A stretch of DNA of 51,831 bases from Gemmatales bacterium (GTDB lineage: Bacteria > Planctomycetota > Planctomycetia > Gemmatales > Gemmataceae), in NCBI GenBank assembly GCA_038211045.1, contig JBBQWA010000001.1:1-51831 (forward strand). Reading direction: 5' to 3'. This document shows, in pieces, positions 11,853 to 51,831 of the stretch (its first letter is position 1; the number at the start of each line of letters is the position of its first letter). The position numbers were made by a program, and so were the translations under genes. The notes under the pieces are model-generated. The model had not been told where the DNA came from. It made no database searches and was given only the letters and a program-made list of their open reading frames with translations.

Positions 11853-12488
11853 TCATGAAATCGCAATTCCCAGGTGTTGTCGGCGGCTCACCGAAAATCG
11901 ATTGTCGAGGTACTTCGCAATGGCAGCAACCAGAATTTGCTCGGCTTGCTCTTGGGAATACTGAAGTTCTTCGACCAACTCTTTTGCACGCCCGGTGATG
12001 GCATTGGAGATGAGTTCTTTGCACAATGCATAATCCTTGACCGATGCTCCGCTTTTTGCTGGCTTGTAGGTATGAACGGACTTCAGCATTTTCGCAATCA
12101 TCGCGTTGGTCGATAAATCCGAATCTCGGATGAAGTCGAGGAAAACCGCATTGAAATAGCCATCTCCGAACTCTCGAGTGGCTTTGCGAAGAGCGGTACG
12201 CAGTCCGAGCGAAAATCGCATCGTTTCTTGTTCAACGTTTGCCGCTCGAATCTTGAAACGGATCAAACCGTTGTTCAAGTCGTCGTCCCATGAGACCGTT
12301 TCCTGAAGGGTGGCCAACCCTTTTTGCTCGAAGGACAACCGCATCTCCGGAAGTGTGGTTCCGAATGTGGTTTCCGGATTGTAAATCTCGAGAACCGCAG
12401 TACTTCCCCGATCCAATTGTTGCTTCCACGGTCGCAAACGCGGATCCGTCAGATCTTGCTTTGAACCGAAAAATGCTTGAATGGACAT
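11853..12488 (-). CDS. Hypothetical protein, no domain recognised
   Basis: 211 aa from MSIQAFFGSK; an alternative ATG at 12536 would overlap the upstream gene by 26 nt. The sequence is non-repetitive and protein-like, with no TM segment. It is visibly more A/T-rich than its flanks. It lies 22 nt after the nucleosidase gene and 10 nt before the FHA-kinase gene. Confidence 0.6.
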   Translation of the reverse strand: MSIQAFFGSKQDLTDPRLRPWKQQLDRGSTAVLEIYNPETTFGTTLPEMRLSFEQKGLATLQETVSWDDDLNNGLIRFKIRAANVEQETMRFSLGLRTALRKATREFGDGYFNAVFLDFIRDSDLSTNAMIAKMLKSVHTYKPAKSGASVKDYALCKELISNAITGRAKELVEELQYSQEQAEQILVAAIAKYLDNRFSVSRRQHLGIAIS

Positions 12489-12510
12489 GCGGGTTCCTTT
12501 CGCAGATCTG

Positions 12511-13380
12511 TTATTCCGATTGCTCGTCCCAAGCATCCATCAATAGGGATCGCAAGACGAAGTCGGCCGCATTTCTGCAGGCAAGCAACCTGTACGCATC
12601 GGAATCGCCGCTCCGATTACCGTCCGCGAAATCCGAAATCCCTTTTACTATACACCAAACCGGTTCGCCGTGTGCGCTCGATGCGGCCAGCAACCCGACT
12701 CCTTCCATTTCCCCTCCAACGATTTCCTCGGAACCGCGTGGCACATGGCGAACCAACTCATCGCGAAACCGCATGCTGCCAATCAGGGCCGCTCCGGAAA
12801 GCACGGCGCCGAAATGCAACCCATAATCACCGCGGCACTTCAGCCCTATGCGCTTGAACAATCCGACGAGGCTTTCGCTGGCTTCTTCGTGAATCGCCCT
12901 GGAATAGTCGGTAAAATAACTTTCCCCGAACAATCGTCTCGAAACGAGGGATCGTTTAATCGCTTTCACTTCGCGTGTGTCGTAATGCACGATTGCCGTC
13001 GAAACCAAGACATCGCCCGGCGATTGCATTTCAGGGTCGATTCCGAAAGCCATCCCCAACTGCACGATCCCTTGTGCCCCCGTCGCCACCCTCAATCGCA
13101 TCCCGCGCGCCGCTGTTCCCAAGTAGCCCGACGCACCCATTACGATGCGACCTTGGATTCTCGGGGGGCTGAATGCGATCACGATTTCGTTTCCAACTCT
13201 GCCGAACCAAAGATATTCCTCACCGAATGGCGATACTTTCCGCTTGATCGTTTCGTACTTGATTCCGAGTGAGTCTGCAGCCGACTTCAAGCCTTGTTCT
13301 TCGGTGGGAGTTGCCAAGAACAGAATCAAGGAACAATCATTCTTGTTTTCGATCTTTGTGGACGAAGTATCTTGATCCAT
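12511..13380 (-). CDS. PNP_UDP_1-fold (MTAN/purine nucleoside phosphorylase-like) nucleosidase
   Basis: Only the last 289 codons of ORF-track entry 12511..14217 are credible, starting at the ATG at 13380 (MDQDTSSTKIENK). Family hallmarks are present: EIVGGEMEGVGL (the EME motif) and WCIVKGISDFADG (the (R/K)xISD catalytic-Asp motif). There is also an N-terminal beta-strand, SLILFLATPTEEQG. Confidence 0.8.
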   Translation of the reverse strand: MDQDTSSTKIENKNDCSLILFLATPTEEQGLKSAADSLGIKYETIKRKVSPFGEEYLWFGRVGNEIVIAFSPPRIQGRIVMGASGYLGTAARGMRLRVATGAQGIVQLGMAFGIDPEMQSPGDVLVSTAIVHYDTREVKAIKRSLVSRRLFGESYFTDYSRAIHEEASESLVGLFKRIGLKCRGDYGLHFGAVLSGAALIGSMRFRDELVRHVPRGSEEIVGGEMEGVGLLAASSAHGEPVWCIVKGISDFADGNRSGDSDAYRLLACRNAADFVLRSLLMDAWDEQSE

Positions 13381-25793: not shown

Positions 25794-25866
25794 GCCCTCG
25801 TAGCTCAGGGGATAGAGCACGGGTTTCCTAAACTCGGGGTCGCTGGTTCGAATCCAGCCTTGGGCA
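25794..25866 (+). tRNA. tRNA-Arg (anticodon CCT)
   Basis: Hand-folded cloverleaf: acceptor GCCCTCG, D-arm GCTC-AGGGGATA-GAGC, anticodon arm CGGGT-TTCCTAA-ACTCG, variable loop GGGTC, T-arm GCTGG-TTCGAAT-CCAGC, 3' acceptor CTTGGGC plus A73. No CCA is encoded. Pairs 5-68 (T.T) and 6-67 (C.T) are mismatched. Confidence 0.75.
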
Positions 25867-46333: not shown

Positions 46334-47833
46334 GTGAAACTTCCCGTGCTCGCACTCGCCATCGCGTTTGCCGTTGTTCGCCAAGCTCCGGCTCAGGATC
46401 CGAGCCAACTGCTGCCGCTGTTCCCGAACGAGGTGAACTCGATCGCGGTGGTGAATGTGGCCGGGATTCTCGCCAGCCCGCGGGCCGTGAAGGAAGGTTG
46501 GACGAAGCTCGAGCACACGGAATACCTGGCCGGGGCCGTGCCGGTGAACCCGTCGGTCGAACGGATGATGCTGGCGAAAGAGTTCGTGCCGAGCCGGCCG
46601 AACAAGAACTGGCCGATGTCGATCGCGCCGTTGAAGAATGCGGTGAACATCGAGAAGTTCGCCAAGGCGTACCACGGGGAGGTGATCGACGTATCGGATA
46701 CCAAGGCCGCGCTCATCGGCACGGATAAGTACGCCGTGGCCGTGAAGCCGAACATCCTCGGCGTGCTCCAGGCAAGCAACAAGCAGGAAGCCGCCCGTTG
46801 GGTTCGGTACGCGAAGGATGCCAGCGGCAGCAAGCAGCCCGCTTACATAAACGCTGCGGTGAACGGCCACGCCAAATCCCACCACATCATGCTGGCAATT
46901 TCCACCGCGGATTTGCTCGACACCCAGAACGTCGGCGTGGCCATCGCCACCAGCAAGGTGCTGGAGAACGCCGAGGCCGCGAAGGACATTCAAGCGTTCT
47001 TCGCCAAGATGCGCGGCCTGCGGGCGATGATCATGGTGCGCGACACCGGCCTCACGGTCGATCTCTACCTCGAATCGGTTTGGACGGCCAAGCCCGATCC
47101 CGCTTTCCTCAAGGCGTTCGTCGCCGAGTGGCTCAACCACTACGGCGCCTTCCTCGAAGATTTCCCCGCCGCCAGCGTGGCCGTGGCCGAGGGAATCGCC
47201 CACATCAGTTTCAAAATCACCGACCCCGAGTTGGCCCGCGTGATGGGCCTATTCCTGCCGCCGCTTTCAAACGTGAGCGAAGAGAACAGCCTGACCGTGA
47301 CGCCCGCCGGGGTTTCCCCCGAAACCACGGGTAAGTACTACCGCACGGTGAACAAGATCGTCGACGACCTCGCCAAGCAGGCGAAGTCCGACAAGGTGCT
47401 GACCGCCCAGGATTACAAGAAGTATTCGCTCTGGTACGAAACCGCGGCGACCAAGATCGAAACCCTTTCGATCCTCGGCGTCGATCCCGCGGTGGCGAAC
47501 TACGGTTTGGGCACGGGGGCGCGCCTCCACAGCATCGCCGATTCCTTGAAAGGTGTGCCCGTGGCCGCCGACGCGCTGACAACGCAATCGTACAGCTACC
47601 GCTATTCGACCGTAGAGATGTACTTCAACGGCCGCATCTTCCTCCCGGTGGTGAACCCGTTTAACACCAACTCGAACTACAACGAGATTCAAGGCAAGAT
47701 CGATCAAACGGTGGTGCAAGACGAAGAGAATCGCAAGAAGCTCTTGGCGAGTATCGAGCGGGAACGCTCGAACGTCCGCCAGGCTTTCGCCGAGAAACAC
47801 AAGGTGGACATCGACACCCCGCCGAAACGGTAG
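46334..47833 (+). CDS. Secreted hypothetical protein
   Basis: GTG start and signal peptide MKLPVLALAIAFAVVRQAPAQ. 499 aa, non-repetitive. It ends 5 nt before the DUF559 gene. Confidence 0.75.
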   Translation: MKLPVLALAIAFAVVRQAPAQDPSQLLPLFPNEVNSIAVVNVAGILASPRAVKEGWTKLEHTEYLAGAVPVNPSVERMMLAKEFVPSRPNKNWPMSIAPLKNAVNIEKFAKAYHGEVIDVSDTKAALIGTDKYAVAVKPNILGVLQASNKQEAARWVRYAKDASGSKQPAYINAAVNGHAKSHHIMLAISTADLLDTQNVGVAIATSKVLENAEAAKDIQAFFAKMRGLRAMIMVRDTGLTVDLYLESVWTAKPDPAFLKAFVAEWLNHYGAFLEDFPAASVAVAEGIAHISFKITDPELARVMGLFLPPLSNVSEENSLTVTPAGVSPETTGKYYRTVNKIVDDLAKQAKSDKVLTAQDYKKYSLWYETAATKIETLSILGVDPAVANYGLGTGARLHSIADSLKGVPVAADALTTQSYSYRYSTVEMYFNGRIFLPVVNPFNTNSNYNEIQGKIDQTVVQDEENRKKLLASIERERSNVRQAFAEKHKVDIDTPPKR

Positions 47834-47838
47834 CTGTT

Positions 47839-48954
47839 ATGGAAGATTCCCCGGCAACGGAGCAGTTTCTCCAACGCCAGGCTTCTCGCCGATCGGCGGG
47901 GATACCCACGGTGGATGTTCTCGTCGGCCCGGTGGGCCTCGCCCGCCGCGCATCGAAGCGGTTCCACATCCATCGACCAATACGCGAAATTTCGGGGGAA
48001 CCGTGGCTGCCATTGCACGGGTTCTTGTCGCAACACGAACAGCAATTCCTCACGGCAGCTCTCGATTACTTGGCCCATCGCGGCGGCCGCGATCCGGAGC
48101 AATTCCAACGCGATTGGGCGAACAAGACGGAAGCGGATCGGAACGCTTTCTGGCAAACGCTCGCCCCCGAATCCGGCGACGACCTGCTGCGGAAGTCCAT
48201 GCAGCCGGGCGAACGCCCCCCCGAAGATATTCGCCCGCTGGTACAACTGAAGCTGCCGGGGTTCGCTTGGCCGGCTCTGTTCACCGTGCCCACTTCACGG
48301 GAAGACATACTGCGGTGGGGTTCGTTCGCGTTGGCAGAACCGCACCTCACCGTGTCGTTGGCAATATCGGAATTGCTCTGGCAGGAGTTCCGGCGAAGTG
48401 CGGGGAGTTCGCGGGCCGAAGCGGTTTTGTTCGAAGGGGAATTCCGATTGCCGCTGATGCCGCATGCGGAAGTGGAACGGGCCTTAATGGCCGGGGGAGT
48501 TCCGGAAGCCGTGGCCCGCGGGCTTTCCGCAGTGGCGGCGGATGCAGAGACTATCGCCGAGACCTTGCGCCTGTACCACGAGACGGCGACCCCGCCCGCC
48601 ACACCGGAATCCGACAGTCGTGCCCGCAGTGCTGCCGAGCAATACTTGTTCGATCGTTTGCAAGATTTGGCCGAAACCGCAGGTCGCTTCGAGCTGAACC
48701 CAACGATGGATTTCCACTTCCGAACCCGCCGCGCGGAAATCGACATGGTTTGCCGGGATCCGAAAATCGCCATCGAAGTGGACGGTTACTACCACTTCCG
48801 CGACGACGACGGCTACCGCCGGGATCGCGAGAAAGATTGGGTGTTGCAGAAGCGGGGGTTCCTCGTATTACGATTTCTGGCCGAGGATGTGACTCGCCAT
48901 TGGGATGAGATACGCGATCGGATTATGGAAGCCCTGCAAAGGAGCGAACGATGA
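47839..48954 (+). CDS. Protein with unrecognised N-terminal region (~270 aa) and C-terminal DUF559 (Vsr-like PD-(D/E)xK endonuclease) domain
   Basis: The C-terminal sequence SAAEQYLFDRLQDL...FELNPTMDFHFRTRRAEIDMVCRDPKIAIEVDGYYHFRDDDGYRRDREKDWVLQKRGFLVLRFLAEDV matches the DUF559 pattern (D-x(n)-IE.DG..H...D..R...L...G..VLRF...DV). Confidence 0.8.
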   Translation: MEDSPATEQFLQRQASRRSAGIPTVDVLVGPVGLARRASKRFHIHRPIREISGEPWLPLHGFLSQHEQQFLTAALDYLAHRGGRDPEQFQRDWANKTEADRNAFWQTLAPESGDDLLRKSMQPGERPPEDIRPLVQLKLPGFAWPALFTVPTSREDILRWGSFALAEPHLTVSLAISELLWQEFRRSAGSSRAEAVLFEGEFRLPLMPHAEVERALMAGGVPEAVARGLSAVAADAETIAETLRLYHETATPPATPESDSRARSAAEQYLFDRLQDLAETAGRFELNPTMDFHFRTRRAEIDMVCRDPKIAIEVDGYYHFRDDDGYRRDREKDWVLQKRGFLVLRFLAEDVTRHWDEIRDRIMEALQRSER

Positions 48955-50150
48955 CGGATACCGTGGAAACCCCGGAAGAACAACCGGCCGCAACGCCGGC
49001 ACCGATGAAAACGTTGAACGAGCATGTCAAGGAGATCATCGCGGCGGCCCCCAAGAAGGTGGCTTTCAAGGCGTTGAAGACCGCTTTGAAAAACGCGGGC
49101 GTGCCCACGACGGGCAAGGCCCGCGTGACCGATGCGGAAATTGAAGTCGCACTCGAGGCCGAGGGTATTTTCCAACATCCGCCGAAGAAGGAAGGCGGCA
49201 AGCCGGAATACTGGCACGCGAGATTCAAGTCTGCCGAGGAAATAGCCGCCGAGAAGGCGGCCAAGATCGCCGAAGCCCAGGCGAAGAAGGAAGCGGATGC
49301 GATCGAGAAGAAACGCCTCGCAGACGAAGCCAAAGTAGCCAAGGCAGCCGAGGCGAAGGCAAAGAAGGAGGCTGAGAAGGCACAGAAGCTTGCGGAGGCT
49401 GAGGAAAAGAAACGCCTCGCCGATGGAGTGAAGGCGGAGAAGAAACGCCTCGCCGAGGAAGCGAAGTTGAAAAAGGTCGGGGAGAAGCTTCGGGTGAAGG
49501 TTGACGGACTTGGCGATGCTCCCGTTCCGCTTTCCAAGTTGGGCAAACCCACTGTTAAGGCTGGCCCGGAAGCCGCCGCCGAGTTCGAACGTGTGTTGAA
49601 GGATTTGGTTGACAAGAAAAGACTGTTTGAACACAAGGGCGGCAAGTACGGCAAGATTGCGCCTCCGCCGCCGCCAGTTCCCAAGCAATGGTTCGAAGCA
49701 ACCCCGGCCAAGAAAGCACTCGACGCACTCGCCAAGGCAGCGAAAAAAGTCTTGGACATTAACGGCGCAACAGCGGATTATGTGTTGGACTTCGTACGCC
49801 GTGCATTGGACGAACCTGCAAACCCTAATCCGGTGCTTATCGCGGAATTGGACTTGGAGACATTTGCCAAGCGGGTTCTGGCAATTGCCGCGACAATCGA
49901 AAACGACGCCAAGCCCTATCCGGGAAAGGTGTATATCGCGGCCGCTTGGCATGCCACGCAACGGGATGCAGTGTTTCCCAAAATGACAATTGATGAATTC
50001 AAACGTCAACTGGTGGAAGCGAACCGGCAGCAACTGCTCGAATTGAGCCAAGCCACGGAAGTCCAAGACATGGACAAAAAACTACTCGAAGAATCCAAGA
50101 CTTTGCAGAACCAAACGACCTTCCAATTTCTCCGCACCGATGGAGTGTAA
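48951..50150 (+). CDS. Lys/Glu/Ala-rich coiled-coil repeat protein, function unknown
   Basis: The ATG overlaps the upstream stop (ATGA at 48951-48954). The central region AAEKAAKIAEAQAKKEADAIEKKRLADEAKVAKAAEAKAKKEAEKAQKLAEAEEKKRLADGVKAEKKRLAEEAKLKK is flanked by ordinary globular-looking N- and C-terminal parts. Confidence 0.75.
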   Translation: MTDTVETPEEQPAATPAPMKTLNEHVKEIIAAAPKKVAFKALKTALKNAGVPTTGKARVTDAEIEVALEAEGIFQHPPKKEGGKPEYWHARFKSAEEIAAEKAAKIAEAQAKKEADAIEKKRLADEAKVAKAAEAKAKKEAEKAQKLAEAEEKKRLADGVKAEKKRLAEEAKLKKVGEKLRVKVDGLGDAPVPLSKLGKPTVKAGPEAAAEFERVLKDLVDKKRLFEHKGGKYGKIAPPPPPVPKQWFEATPAKKALDALAKAAKKVLDINGATADYVLDFVRRALDEPANPNPVLIAELDLETFAKRVLAIAATIENDAKPYPGKVYIAAAWHATQRDAVFPKMTIDEFKRQLVEANRQQLLELSQATEVQDMDKKLLEESKTLQNQTTFQFLRTDGV

Positions 50151-50153
50151 GTC

Positions 50154-51831
50154 ATGGTTTCCAGCGTGAAAGAGGAGGATTCAACGAAAATGGATCACAT
50201 CGTCGATGCACGGTTGAAAGCGTTTCTCTCCCCGAACTCCCCGGAGATTTTCCACAGTGTGGCGACGCCGACCGCCATGTGGCGGCCGGATCCCTTCGAC
50301 ATCGATTCGATCCACTCCAAGGCGCGCGAGGCTTTCGCAAAGGTGTTAGCACGGGCGGGGCGTACGCACGCTCCTCCTTCGGGATCCGTGCTGGTGCTGC
50401 TAGGGGATGCGGGAAGTGGAAAGACACACCTCATGCGGGCATTCCGCAACCAGACACACACCTCAGGGAATGGCTATTGTGGCTACATGCAGATGACGAC
50501 CGAAACGGGCAGTTATTCCCGGTACATGCTCAACAATCTAATCTCCGATTTGGAGAAACCCCACACACCGGAAAGTACACGTACGAGTTTGAATCGATTA
50601 TCGTCATCGTTGCTGGAGAAAGTACCGGGTTTGAGCCAAAAAGATCGGGAACAATTTCGCGACGGCCCGGGGGAGGTTTCCGAGTTGGCCGATGAATATG
50701 TTGATCGCCTGAAAGAGTTGCCGGAATTTGGAACCTGCGACTTGTACTTGCTCCGGATTCTCATGCACCTAGAACGCAATGATAACAAAGTTCGTAGTCG
50801 TGCTCTCATGTGGCTGCGTTGCTTGGAAATGAAGGCGACCGACCGGCATTGGATCGGCGAAGCGGTGGCCAGAACTGACGATGCAGATCCCGATCGAACG
50901 ATACGGCATCTCGCCGAAATCATGCGGGCCGCGAGTGGATCGCCATTGGTATTGCTCATCGATCAACTCGAAGACATGAGCAAACAGGATCGGCCGACGG
51001 AGCGATTCCGCAAGATTGTGGATGCGATCACCGCATTGGCCGATCAGAATTCGAACGTCGTCGTGGTGATGGCCTGCCTAGAAGATTACTTCCGCTTGAA
51101 TGAAAAAGAGATTGGAACCGCCAAGCAACAACGCTTGATGAACGATCCACCGCCCGTCATCATGCGAGCGAGTCGCTCGGTGGCAGATATTCGGGCGATG
51201 GCAGTTAACCGTTTGCAATACCTTTACGACGAAGCGGGGGTCGAAGGCAATTTCAAGGATACGCTGTACCCTTTCTCCGAAAAAGACATTGCGGAACTCG
51301 CCGGGATTTCACCCCGGGAAGTATTGTTGAATTTCTTGCGGCACCATCAGCGCTGTATTTCGGAAGGCTGTTGGATCCAACCCTGGGTTGGGAAGAATCC
51401 ACCAATTATAAATGCCGATTCGCTCACTCCCATTTGGAATGACTTCTTCAACGGCTTCACCTTTTCCCCGGATGAACTCGACGAAGAAAATGAATATGCT
51501 GCGGCCATTGCCTCGGCGGTGCGGAACATCGCGCCGGAACTCCCCGAAGGTAACCACTTCGGCACACCGCAATCGGATGGCCGATATCTCGAACTCGAGC
51601 TTCAACAACCCGATGATGGCATCGCCAAGCTCCTCGTGGCGGTCTGCAATAAAGGCGGCCAAGGTCGCGGTTTGCTAAACGAGTTGATCGACGTGGAGAA
51701 GCGTGCCGGAGACATTCCGGTTTCCATTGTTCGGACGATCAACTTCCCGCGAACCGGCCAAGCGTTGGAAAAGCTCGGCAAAATGCTGAAGCAACAAGGC
51801 CGTTCCGTGGTCATTCCCGATTCCGATTGGC
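50154..51831 (+). CDS. P-loop NTPase (AAA/STAND-like), C-terminus cut by right window edge
   Basis: My own translation from the ATG at 50154, 3 nt after the upstream stop: MVSSVKEEDSTKMDHIVDARLKAF... Walker A is VLVLLGDAGSGKTHLMRAF (nt ~50403-50426). Walker B is SPLVLLIDQLEDM. A sensor-like strand NVVVVMACLEDYF follows. The frame is open to the last base, so it is absent from the ORF track. Confidence 0.8.
   Translation, partial: MVSSVKEEDSTKMDHIVDARLKAFLSPNSPEIFHSVATPTAMWRPDPFDIDSIHSKAREAFAKVLARAGRTHAPPSGSVLVLLGDAGSGKTHLMRAFRNQTHTSGNGYCGYMQMTTETGSYSRYMLNNLISDLEKPHTPESTRTSLNRLSSSLLEKVPGLSQKDREQFRDGPGEVSELADEYVDRLKELPEFGTCDLYLLRILMHLERNDNKVRSRALMWLRCLEMKATDRHWIGEAVARTDDADPDRTIRHLAEIMRAASGSPLVLLIDQLEDMSKQDRPTERFRKIVDAITALADQNSNVVVVMACLEDYFRLNEKEIGTAKQQRLMNDPPPVIMRASRSVADIRAMAVNRLQYLYDEAGVEGNFKDTLYPFSEKDIAELAGISPREVLLNFLRHHQRCISEGCWIQPWVGKNPPIINADSLTPIWNDFFNGFTFSPDELDEENEYAAAIASAVRNIAPELPEGNHFGTPQSDGRYLELELQQPDDGIAKLLVAVCNKGGQGRGLLNELIDVEKRAGDIPVSIVRTINFPRTGQALEKLGKMLKQQGRSVVIPDSDW

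Follow-up and report, generated by a model that had tools for sequence, protein, structure and literature searches.

A conserved three-gene cassette of Planctomycetota and other bacteria, a candidate anti-invader system of the Orc/CDC6–HerA/FtsK capture type

Three coupled genes and their domains

Three genes stand close together at the end of the 51,831-nt stretch of Gemmatales DNA analysed here (JBBQWA010000001.1 of assembly GCA_038211045.1, positions 1–51,831 of the forward strand; henceforth the window, to which all numbering refers). These genes, like the domains described within them, lie on the + strand. According to the list of open reading frames (ORFs), they encode a predicted AAA+-like domain devoid of ATPase motifs joined to a Vsr/DUF559 nuclease (g1, 47839..48954, 371 amino acids (aa)), a diverged partner protein, probably a winged-helix DNA-binding one (g2, 48951..50150, 399 aa), and the 5' part of a large ATPase gene with an Orc1/Cdc6-type AAA+ domain and a middle domain (g3, 50154..51831, 559 of ~1060–1100 codons, without a stop). 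The trio is a real, self-contained and widely conserved cassette whose three proteins co-diverge as a unit, and on balance we favour seeing in it a chromosomal anti-invader system, directed at phages or plasmids, of the Orc/CDC6–HerA/FtsK capture type.

The start-on-stop packing of the three genes, reported in a first-pass annotation of this DNA, is borne out by both the ORF list and the sequence. At the g1/g2 junction, CGATGACG, an ATGA overlap occupies 48951–48954, and the TAA stop of g2 (50148–50150) is followed by GTC and then by the ATG of g3 at 50154, a gap of 3 nt. AAGGAG and GGAG motifs can be read in the sequence 8–12 nt 5' of the start codons of g2 and g3, and no terminator-like site was found on the + strand inside the cassette. 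These junctions, and the conservation of the genes as a unit across the family, support the reading of the trio as a translationally coupled operon.

The C-terminal domain of g1 (48676..48942) is a Vsr-like DUF559 nuclease domain of the PD-(D/E)xK kind, with the motif EIDMVC...IAIEVDGYYH at 48736–48795 and a match to Pfam PF04480 over aa 301–367 (E 2.5e-10, 40.6 bits against a cutoff of 20.6). In the AlphaFold2 model of g1, which has a mean predicted local distance difference test score (pLDDT) of 92.6, Foldseek aligns this domain with 3hrl (TM score 0.80, target-normalised; root-mean-square deviation 3.1 Å over 106 columns) and also with the catalytic domain of I-Bth0305I (3r3p). Homologues of g1 are ~400 aa long and gave 943 matches; E300, D302, E313, D315 and H319 are invariant in 57 of them, the last four residues align to 3hrl, and the D...ExD...H active-site pattern is present on the Vsr-like fold. 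We predict from this that the nuclease site is intact, and the DUF559 domain recognised at the outset holds up, its catalytic residues showing no degeneracy across the family. A viral fold search with g1 returned generic DUF559/Vsr nucleases only.

Ahead of the nuclease lie ~270 aa that initially went unrecognised and that model confidently as an AAA+-like fold lacking the Walker A lysine and the Walker B acids. The module (aa 1–250, 47839..48588) combines an alpha/beta fold with a helical lid and is predicted to be catalytically dead; against the PDB, Foldseek retrieves with it the Walker-type ATPase PAby2304 (2qen, E 5e-4), HslU, ORC/Cdc6, MuB and RdrA. The position of the P-loop reads GPVGLARRAS here and GPIGAGxxTW in the family consensus, the Lys being absent, and no conserved acid occupies the Walker B position in the family alignment. 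We accordingly read the region, as modelled, as a putative pseudo-ATPase. Aligned by hhalign with the AAA+ domain of g3 it gives a weak score (E 0.055), with equivalent strands aligned.

The third gene had been described as a P-loop NTPase, and its motifs are indeed nearly invariant. In 60 homologues, G84, G87, G89, K90 and T91 of the Walker A motif GDAGSGKT (aa 84–91, 50403..50426) never vary, nor do Q271 and E273 of the Walker B motif LLIDQLED (aa 267–274, 50952..50975), with D270 and D274 nearly as constant. The protein is not a simple NTPase, however, as what the window holds is the first half of a predicted fusion of an Orc1/Cdc6-like with a HerA/FtsK-like ATPase. Above Pfam cutoffs, the fragment matches AAA_16 (39.3 bits), AAA_22, BrxC_BrxD and nSTAND1, the last limited to aa 244–315 (29.0 against a cutoff of 27.1 bits). 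The top 14 Foldseek matches of its model (pLDDT 88.7) are archaeal or eukaryotic Orc1, Cdc6 or ORC subunits (E 4.5e-5 to 2.7e-3, probability 1.0), and the N-terminus of BrxC (9zll, E 6.5e-3, TM ~0.3) appears lower down.

The AAA+ core is followed by an alpha/beta domain (aa 445–553, 51486..51812) with the topology alpha-beta-beta-beta-alpha-beta, its elements in the model being helix 445–462, strands 473–475, 478–484 and 490–497, helix 506–518 and strand 523–527. It looks as an inactive restriction endonuclease-like (iREase) insert would, and by this modelled topology it is a candidate for one. A conserved D...(D/E)xK motif is absent from the domain, strand 3 reading VCNK, VCDK or LCQK, and profile searches of the PDB and Pfam gave neither a sequence match nor a nuclease family.

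The C-terminal half of g3 lies past the end of the window, which stops at aa 559, and is preceded by a helical segment and a proline-rich linker. In isolate genomes the intact orthologues are single ORFs of 1062–1099 aa (e.g. in Singulisphaera acidiphila, Singulisphaera Ch08, Archangium gephyra, strain CJuql4, Nitrosomonas mobilis, Vacuolonema, Tautonia and Aquisphaera). Compared as a profile with the PDB, their C-terminal half finds the HerA-like protein YjgR (11kk, 1.2e-11) and chains of the Sir2-HerA/DUF4297-HerA type (8wiv, 8xau). All 44 full-length members match the mad8 model of PADLOC (best E 1.1e-24, with positions 10–287 of the 314 in the profile covered in the first member) as well as HerA models; 8 also match DndH models and 11, weakly, mad3. 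The orthologues conserve a Walker A (GGxGSGKTT) and a Walker B motif (LFDEAD) here as well. As predicted from sequence, then, g3 encodes a protein of ~1080 aa in which both ATPase sites are intact, one in an Orc1/Cdc6-like AAA+ domain and one in a HerA/FtsK-like domain.

In many metagenome-assembled genomes (MAGs) the gene is broken into 2–4 ORFs, at points that vary within the HerA half or linker (L001:10001-13155, L002:10001-13163, L004:1572-4752, L008, L024, L033, L049 and others), and many database entries of 600–980 aa finish in arginine-rich out-of-frame tails. A split g3 or a programmed frameshift as a general feature was rejected, given the single ORF of isolate genomes and the concentration of splits in long-read MAG assemblies; most of these breaks are probably long-read assembly errors. 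In Singulisphaera sp. GP187 (L037:12010-12040; cf. L036 and L050) the split comes from a difference of 1 nt in a G-run, GGGGG against GGGGGG/GGGGGA, which falls in the stretch coding for the HerA Walker A motif (LGGTGSGKT), and the database protein P0045, from another assembly, loses the frame at this motif too. The break may reflect an error in sequencing, a mutation that inactivates the gene, or phase variation at a slippage-prone site.

The product of g2 had been taken for a K/E/A-rich coiled-coil adaptor. The low-complexity stretch behind that description is real (aa 91–180, 49221..49490, 72% K+E+A) but lineage-specific rather than a family trait: the richest 60 aa of g2 reach 48% K+E, where the median of the family is 20% and the runner-up has 27%, and the segment is common only to close relatives (P0236–P0238). 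Because it is peculiar to this lineage, the label does not suit the family. The best-conserved part is instead a C-terminal domain (aa ~296–399, 49836..50147), with near-invariant residues that include F305, W333, K351, D369, S382 and H392; BLASTP of g2 against the middle genes of four other loci (L001–L004) aligns this part only. No match to g2 was found in Pfam, NCBIfam or PADLOC v2, and 56 family members had no PADLOC match, Pfam Mrr_N matching 3 of the 56. The weak matches of the family profile are all winged helix-turn-helix (wHTH) folds (DtxR, 8pvt, E 0.004; MarR; S19e), and g2 is probably a diverged winged-helix DNA-binding protein. Homology between g2 and g1 was considered and none was detected.

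An exhaustive search with the C-terminal domain of g2 reached 406 representative clusters at E ≤ 1e-3; a word-indexed homologue search with g2 gave 3 relatives. The domain also occurs in response-regulator receiver proteins of 570–740 aa and in one LPD3 polyvalent protein of 1420 aa (P0244, P0245, P0246, P0249, P0253, P0269 and P0254), fusions which suggest that it may be a portable binding module.

Conservation and distribution of the cassette

A scan of one genome per species over 185,579 species representatives confirmed relatives of g3 in 219 of them (~0.1%), and 80 loci were kept for analysis. The cassette stands in the same gene order in ~60 of these 80, between unrelated flanks. All-against-all clustering of the ORFs found within 10 kb in 87 loci placed the g2 family in 87 loci, directly upstream of g3, the g3 family in 85 and the g1 family in 61 (63 by hidden Markov model, HMM); the order and strand of g1, g2 and g3 are identical in every locus that has them. 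The 4-nt overlap is the commonest junction, both between g1 and g2 (28 of 52) and between g2 and g3 (30 of 74). Over 24 loci the pairwise distances of the three proteins correlate with r = 0.86–0.91, from which it follows that they travel and diverge together, with mean pairwise identities of 32% for g1, 35% for g2 and 44% for g3.

Most hosts belong to Gemmataceae, Isosphaeraceae or other Planctomycetota, and further copies come from Myxococcota, Cyanobacteria, Nitrosomonas, Chromatiales and Chloroflexota. Named carriers include Archangium gephyra (a complete genome), Vacuolonema LEGE 07170, Nitrosomonas mobilis and N. communis; among cultured strains, the three-gene version is found in Singulisphaera acidiphila DSM 18658, A. 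gephyra, N. mobilis and Vacuolonema LEGE 07170. This spread across phyla indicates horizontal transfer. In the protein database, homologues of g1 and of g3 come from common contigs. Among four such loci read individually (L001–L004), the nuclease, the middle gene and the ATPase follow one another in a 3-Mb planctomycete contig, in Singulisphaera sp. GP187 and in a Caldilineaceae MAG, and an unrelated 591-aa protein takes the place of g1 in L002. One copy sits on a 3.4-kb contig binned with a Mycobacterium sp. MAG (L021, NZ_JBKQQD010000399.1); at 61% protein identity it is closer to the g3 of the window than most planctomycete copies are, and the contig is probably a mis-binned planctomycete.

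Neither conserved core synteny nor common flanks accompany g3, the neighbours differing between lineages, and the NTPase does not belong to a housekeeping family. The guess that the system continues past the window with more genes was wrong: beyond the end lies the second half of g3 and no further conserved gene. In the 80 loci, no fourth conserved family was found within 10 kb beyond lineage-specific neighbours, and the candidates for one (clusters 4–11) were rejected as shadow ORFs in GC-rich DNA or as such neighbours (SodC, dTDP-sugar epimerase).

Genomic context and possible function

The cassette differs in composition from its surroundings in part. The A/T-richness noted in the first-pass annotation applies to g2 and g3 (GC 0.559 and 0.542), which lie 4–6 points under the whole window (0.596), and does not extend to g1 (0.614). 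Among the 1-kb bins of the window, one other only is as low in GC as the g3 region; the lowest is 12001–13000 (0.522 against ~0.60), below even g3. The sole tRNA gene of the window, a tRNA-Arg (CCT) at 25794–25866, is distant from the cassette. Immediately upstream, a 499-aa ORF (46334–47833, TAG stop at 47831–47833) ends 5 nt before g1; it has a signal-peptide-like N-terminus (MKLPVLALAIAFAVVRQAPAQ), may be co-transcribed with g1, and found no match in Pfam, NCBIfam or PADLOC. As it is common only to a 96%-identical relative (L005), this gene for a secreted protein is not part of the conserved cassette.

It had been stated that the trio could not be mapped to any named system. It does map to a class known from computational prediction, the Orc/CDC6–HerA/FtsK capture class (PMC10853773; Nucleic Acids Research 2024, sections 22 and 26). 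The neighbourhoods described there are mobile and hold an Orc/CDC6 ATPase, an iREase insert, an active restriction endonuclease (REase), a HerA/FtsK ATPase and wHTH domains, in one or several polypeptides; the iREase is inserted between the AAA+ core and a C-terminal wHTH, and some neighbourhoods have an extra protein that evolves fast and bears 2–4 wHTH domains. The mechanism proposed in that work is that Orc/Cdc6 localises the apparatus on DNA and HerA/FtsK intercepts the invader, and the neighbourhoods are said to combine traits of mobile elements with those of defence systems (PMC10853773). The class is restated in PMC12839542, which also describes BrxB, an inactive STAND/Orc-like protein, as the partner of BrxC and PglZ.

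Applied to the cassette, this scheme would have g2, as a winged-helix protein, and the Orc/Cdc6 module bind and mark the DNA substrate. ATP-dependent assembly of the Orc/Cdc6 module would then recruit g1 through its putative pseudo-AAA+ domain, a step with a possible parallel in BREX, where BrxB, an inactive STAND protein, associates with BrxC and PglZ; the HerA/FtsK ring would translocate ("capture") the foreign DNA, and the DUF559 nuclease would nick or cleave it. Since no methyltransferase is conserved nearby, discrimination between self and non-self would rest on the form or entry state of the DNA and not on modification. A more specific proposal, which we advance tentatively, is that the cassette is an unnamed functional defence system in which the dead AAA+ domain of g1 acts as a "decoy subunit", slotting into or capping the Orc/Cdc6-type oligomer of g3. 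Cleavage would be licensed once ATP drives assembly on invader DNA, as the fused HerA motor reels that DNA in. The result would be a two-motor, modification-independent restriction machine, largely confined to Planctomycetota, Myxococcota and Cyanobacteria, and its pseudo-ATPase–effector logic would have arisen independently of BrxB–PglZ in BREX.

From the domain logic we infer that a defence role is plausible. The domain composition speaks for a capture-type system, as does the relationship of the HerA half with Mad8, HerA and DndH. A distribution that is patchy and crosses phyla points the same way, as do the atypical GC, a divergence that is faster in g1 and g2 than in g3, and occasional decay (loss of g1, one frameshift in an isolate). 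One copy lies among toxin-antitoxin genes, an IS91-family element and an integrase: in L001 (6400–7700 and 13200–22550) the cassette is surrounded by Phd/YefM, HTH_37, PIN and AbiEii toxin-antitoxin genes, an IS91-family transposase and a phage-type integrase, and this is the only locus examined that resembles a mobile or defence island.

Several observations weigh on the other side. The suspicion that a nuclease, an NTPase and an adaptor-like protein together spell an anti-phage or anti-plasmid system survives in that the trio fits the predicted capture class, but known defence genes are not enriched in its immediate flanks. A PADLOC and Pfam survey of 148 flanking proteins from 38 loci showed no defence-island enrichment, the commonest PADLOC families reaching 3 of the 148 proteins each with generic kinase or helicase models; by Pfam the flanks are ordinary (SodC, sigma factors, sugar enzymes), with a few toxin-antitoxin genes. 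No copies of the cassette were found on plasmids, where distant HerA-domain matches are all that appears, nor in phage genomes or IMG/VR contigs. Within lineages such as the Isosphaeraceae and Singulisphaera its location is stable, less variable than is typical of defence genes. Furthermore, ~13–15 loci with enough upstream DNA keep g2 and g3 intact and have no g1, from which the nuclease would seem not to be strictly required for selection on the other two. Lastly, g2 is assigned to wHTH proteins from weak profile signals, the middle domain of g3 is taken for an iREase from topology only, and an interaction between g1 and g3, with an hhalign E value of 0.055 between their AAA+ domains, is pure conjecture.

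In two of the loci without g1, L030 (2166–2420) and L009 (8746–8961), remnants of the g1 C-terminus (HMM positions ~367–414) remain just upstream of g2, which suggests that at least some losses of g1 are secondary; an alternative effector was sought in loci without g1 and rejected, the upstream ORFs of ten of them being unrelated (Tim44-like, a helicase C-terminal fragment, no match). Downstream of the cassette in two Singulisphaera loci (L036:14209-18697 and L003:14826-19308) lie a ~620–630-aa protein with a weak HATPase_c_3 match and a ~860–900-aa tetratricopeptide repeat (TPR) protein. In strain GP187 an IS110 transposase separates the cassette from this pair, which may be another type of conflict system.

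Archaeal and bacterial HerA-NurA systems pair HerA with a nuclease, and a comparable pairing here raises the possibility of an accessory DNA-repair or processing complex, engaged in HerA-NurA-like end resection or Vsr-like mismatch nicking, in which the HerA motor would supply the DUF559 nuclease with DNA and the Orc-like module would load it at lesions or stalled forks. The best PDB sequence match of the HerA half, E. coli YjgR, is a chromosomal HerA-like protein, the hosts are large-genome bacteria with complex lifestyles, and the ordinary neighbours, the stable location in some lineages and the lack of plasmid or viral copies would all suit such a role. We nevertheless regard it as unlikely. 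A gene set present in some 0.1% of species and scattered over unrelated phyla is unfit for a core repair role, its GC is atypical in the window, g1 and g2 diverge fast, NurA, Mre11 and Rad50 are not conserved nearby, and by profile the HerA half is closest to Mad8, which belongs to a validated defence system.

We likewise give little credence to a domesticated or decaying module of an integrated mobile element, in which an Orc/Cdc6-like replication initiator, an FtsK/HerA-like pump for DNA transfer or packaging, a protein that binds DNA and a homing-type nuclease would serve the propagation of the element itself and not host defence. ATPases of the Orc/Cdc6 and FtsK/HerA kinds characterise replication and transfer modules, and mixed features were noted in PMC10853773; the DUF559 domain resembles the homing endonuclease I-Bth0305I, the copy in L001 adjoins a transposase, an integrase and toxin-antitoxin genes, and the LPD3 polyvalent protein that shares the C-terminal domain of g2 is of a type found in conjugative elements and phages. 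Integrase, relaxase, capsid and conjugation genes, however, are not conserved with the cassette in the 80 loci, and the plasmid, phage and IMG/VR collections gave no copy of it.

Should the capture-type reading be right, the cassette would offer an experimentally tractable example of a class so far known from comparative-genomics prediction. It would show an initiator-type AAA+ ATPase and a DNA pump cooperating in one polypeptide, the control of a nuclease through a dead ATPase domain and the recognition of invader DNA in the absence of a modification module, and the immune repertoire of Planctomycetota and Myxococcota, so far little studied, would gain a member. As a repair or mobile-element module it would be of ordinary interest.

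Comparison with known systems

The first-pass annotation could not assign the trio to BREX, DISARM, Lamassu, Gabija or Septu. It is none of these; PADLOC v2 gives no match for g1 or g2 and for the g3 fragment weak BrxD and mad8 matches only. From STAND NTPases (AVAST/nSTAND) the cassette differs in that the fold search with g3 ranks Orc1/Cdc6 above NLR/STAND, and in that the C-terminal part of the protein is a HerA ATPase and not a TPR/WD40 sensor. With DndFGH/DptFGH it shares the logic of a HerA/FtsK motor (DndH), a wHTH recognition protein (the triple-wHTH DndG) and a nuclease, and, weakly, sequence, through the PDB match of g3 to DptH (7es4, E 0.17) and the DndH matches of 8 of the 44 orthologues. 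The phosphorothioate module and the DndF kinase are missing from the cassette, DndH is far larger with other domains, and similarity of g2 to DndG is not detectable. Closer in their motor are the Sir2-HerA and DUF4297-HerA systems, in which a HerA-family hexameric ATPase is likewise paired with an effector and whose HerA models match the C-terminal half of g3. In the cassette, by contrast, the effector is a Vsr/DUF559 nuclease, HerA is fused to Orc/Cdc6 and a third protein, g2, is obligatory; no Sir2 or DUF4297 effector was found among the conserved neighbours, and g1 and g2 are without PADLOC matches.

The operon of MADS, the methylation-associated defence system, comprises 8 genes and encodes a methyltransferase, a specificity subunit and a kinase; Mad8 is required for its phage resistance, and its detection model requires Mad6, Mad7 and Mad8. 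The likeness lies in the HerA/FtsK half of g3, which matches mad8 in 44 of 44 full-length orthologues. It ends there: the Mad8-like domain is the only one present, the Mad6 kinase, Mad7 and the methyltransferase not being conserved and kinase-type matches amounting to 3 of 148 flanking proteins, and in the cassette HerA forms one polypeptide with an Orc/Cdc6 ATPase. BREX has in common with the cassette an AAA+ scaffold ATPase of the Orc/Cdc6 clade (g3 matches BrxC of structure 9zll and the BrxC_BrxD family, 26.0 against a cutoff of 22.2 bits) and the pairing of this ATPase with an effector and a protein with an inactive AAA+/STAND-like domain (for BREX, PMC12839542). PglZ, the BrxX/PglX methyltransferase and BrxA, in turn, are not conserved within 10 kb at the 80 loci; the effector of the cassette is a DUF559 nuclease fused directly to a putatively inactive AAA+-like domain, its ATPase has an extra HerA motor, and g1 has no sequence similarity to BrxB, as judged by the lack of a PADLOC match. 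That the cassette is a reduced or atypical, modification-linked BREX or MADS with its other components elsewhere in the genome is therefore very improbable, for all the BrxC-type, BrxD, mad8 and mad3 (11 of 44) matches, as PglZ, methyltransferase, Mad6 and Mad7 are not conserved nearby, the BrxD score of the g3 fragment is 22 bits against an NCBIfam cutoff of 350, and MADS needs Mad6, Mad7 and Mad8 together.

The capture class is the one whose listed features the trio fits throughout, tentatively so for the iREase and the wHTH. Both have a AAA+ ATPase from the clade of Orc/CDC6 (seen in g3 by Foldseek, AAA_16 and the invariant Walker A and B motifs), a HerA/FtsK ATPase, which in the intact g3 orthologues, and thus beyond the window, is in the same polypeptide, and a separate nuclease of the PD-(D/E)xK fold in the operon, predicted to be active in g1 and absent from the ~13–15 loci mentioned above. 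They may also share an alpha/beta domain of REase topology after the AAA+ core (g3 aa 445–553) and a diverged partner protein with weak wHTH signals (g2). The distribution is mobile and patchy in both, and neither includes a modification enzyme. The genera that carry the cassette are not listed in the accessible part of the supplement text of PMC10853773; compared with the main text of that paper, the cassette matches the kind predicted there. Its nuclease departs from the published description, in which two active REase families are named, one of them common to AbiJ, and Vsr and DUF559 have 0 occurrences in the text; the text of PMC12839542 does not name them either. A nuclease fused to a dead AAA+-like domain is likewise absent from the texts of PMC10853773 and PMC12839542, and the predicted pseudo-AAA+ domain on the nuclease appears to be a previously undescribed feature that the cassette adds to the class.

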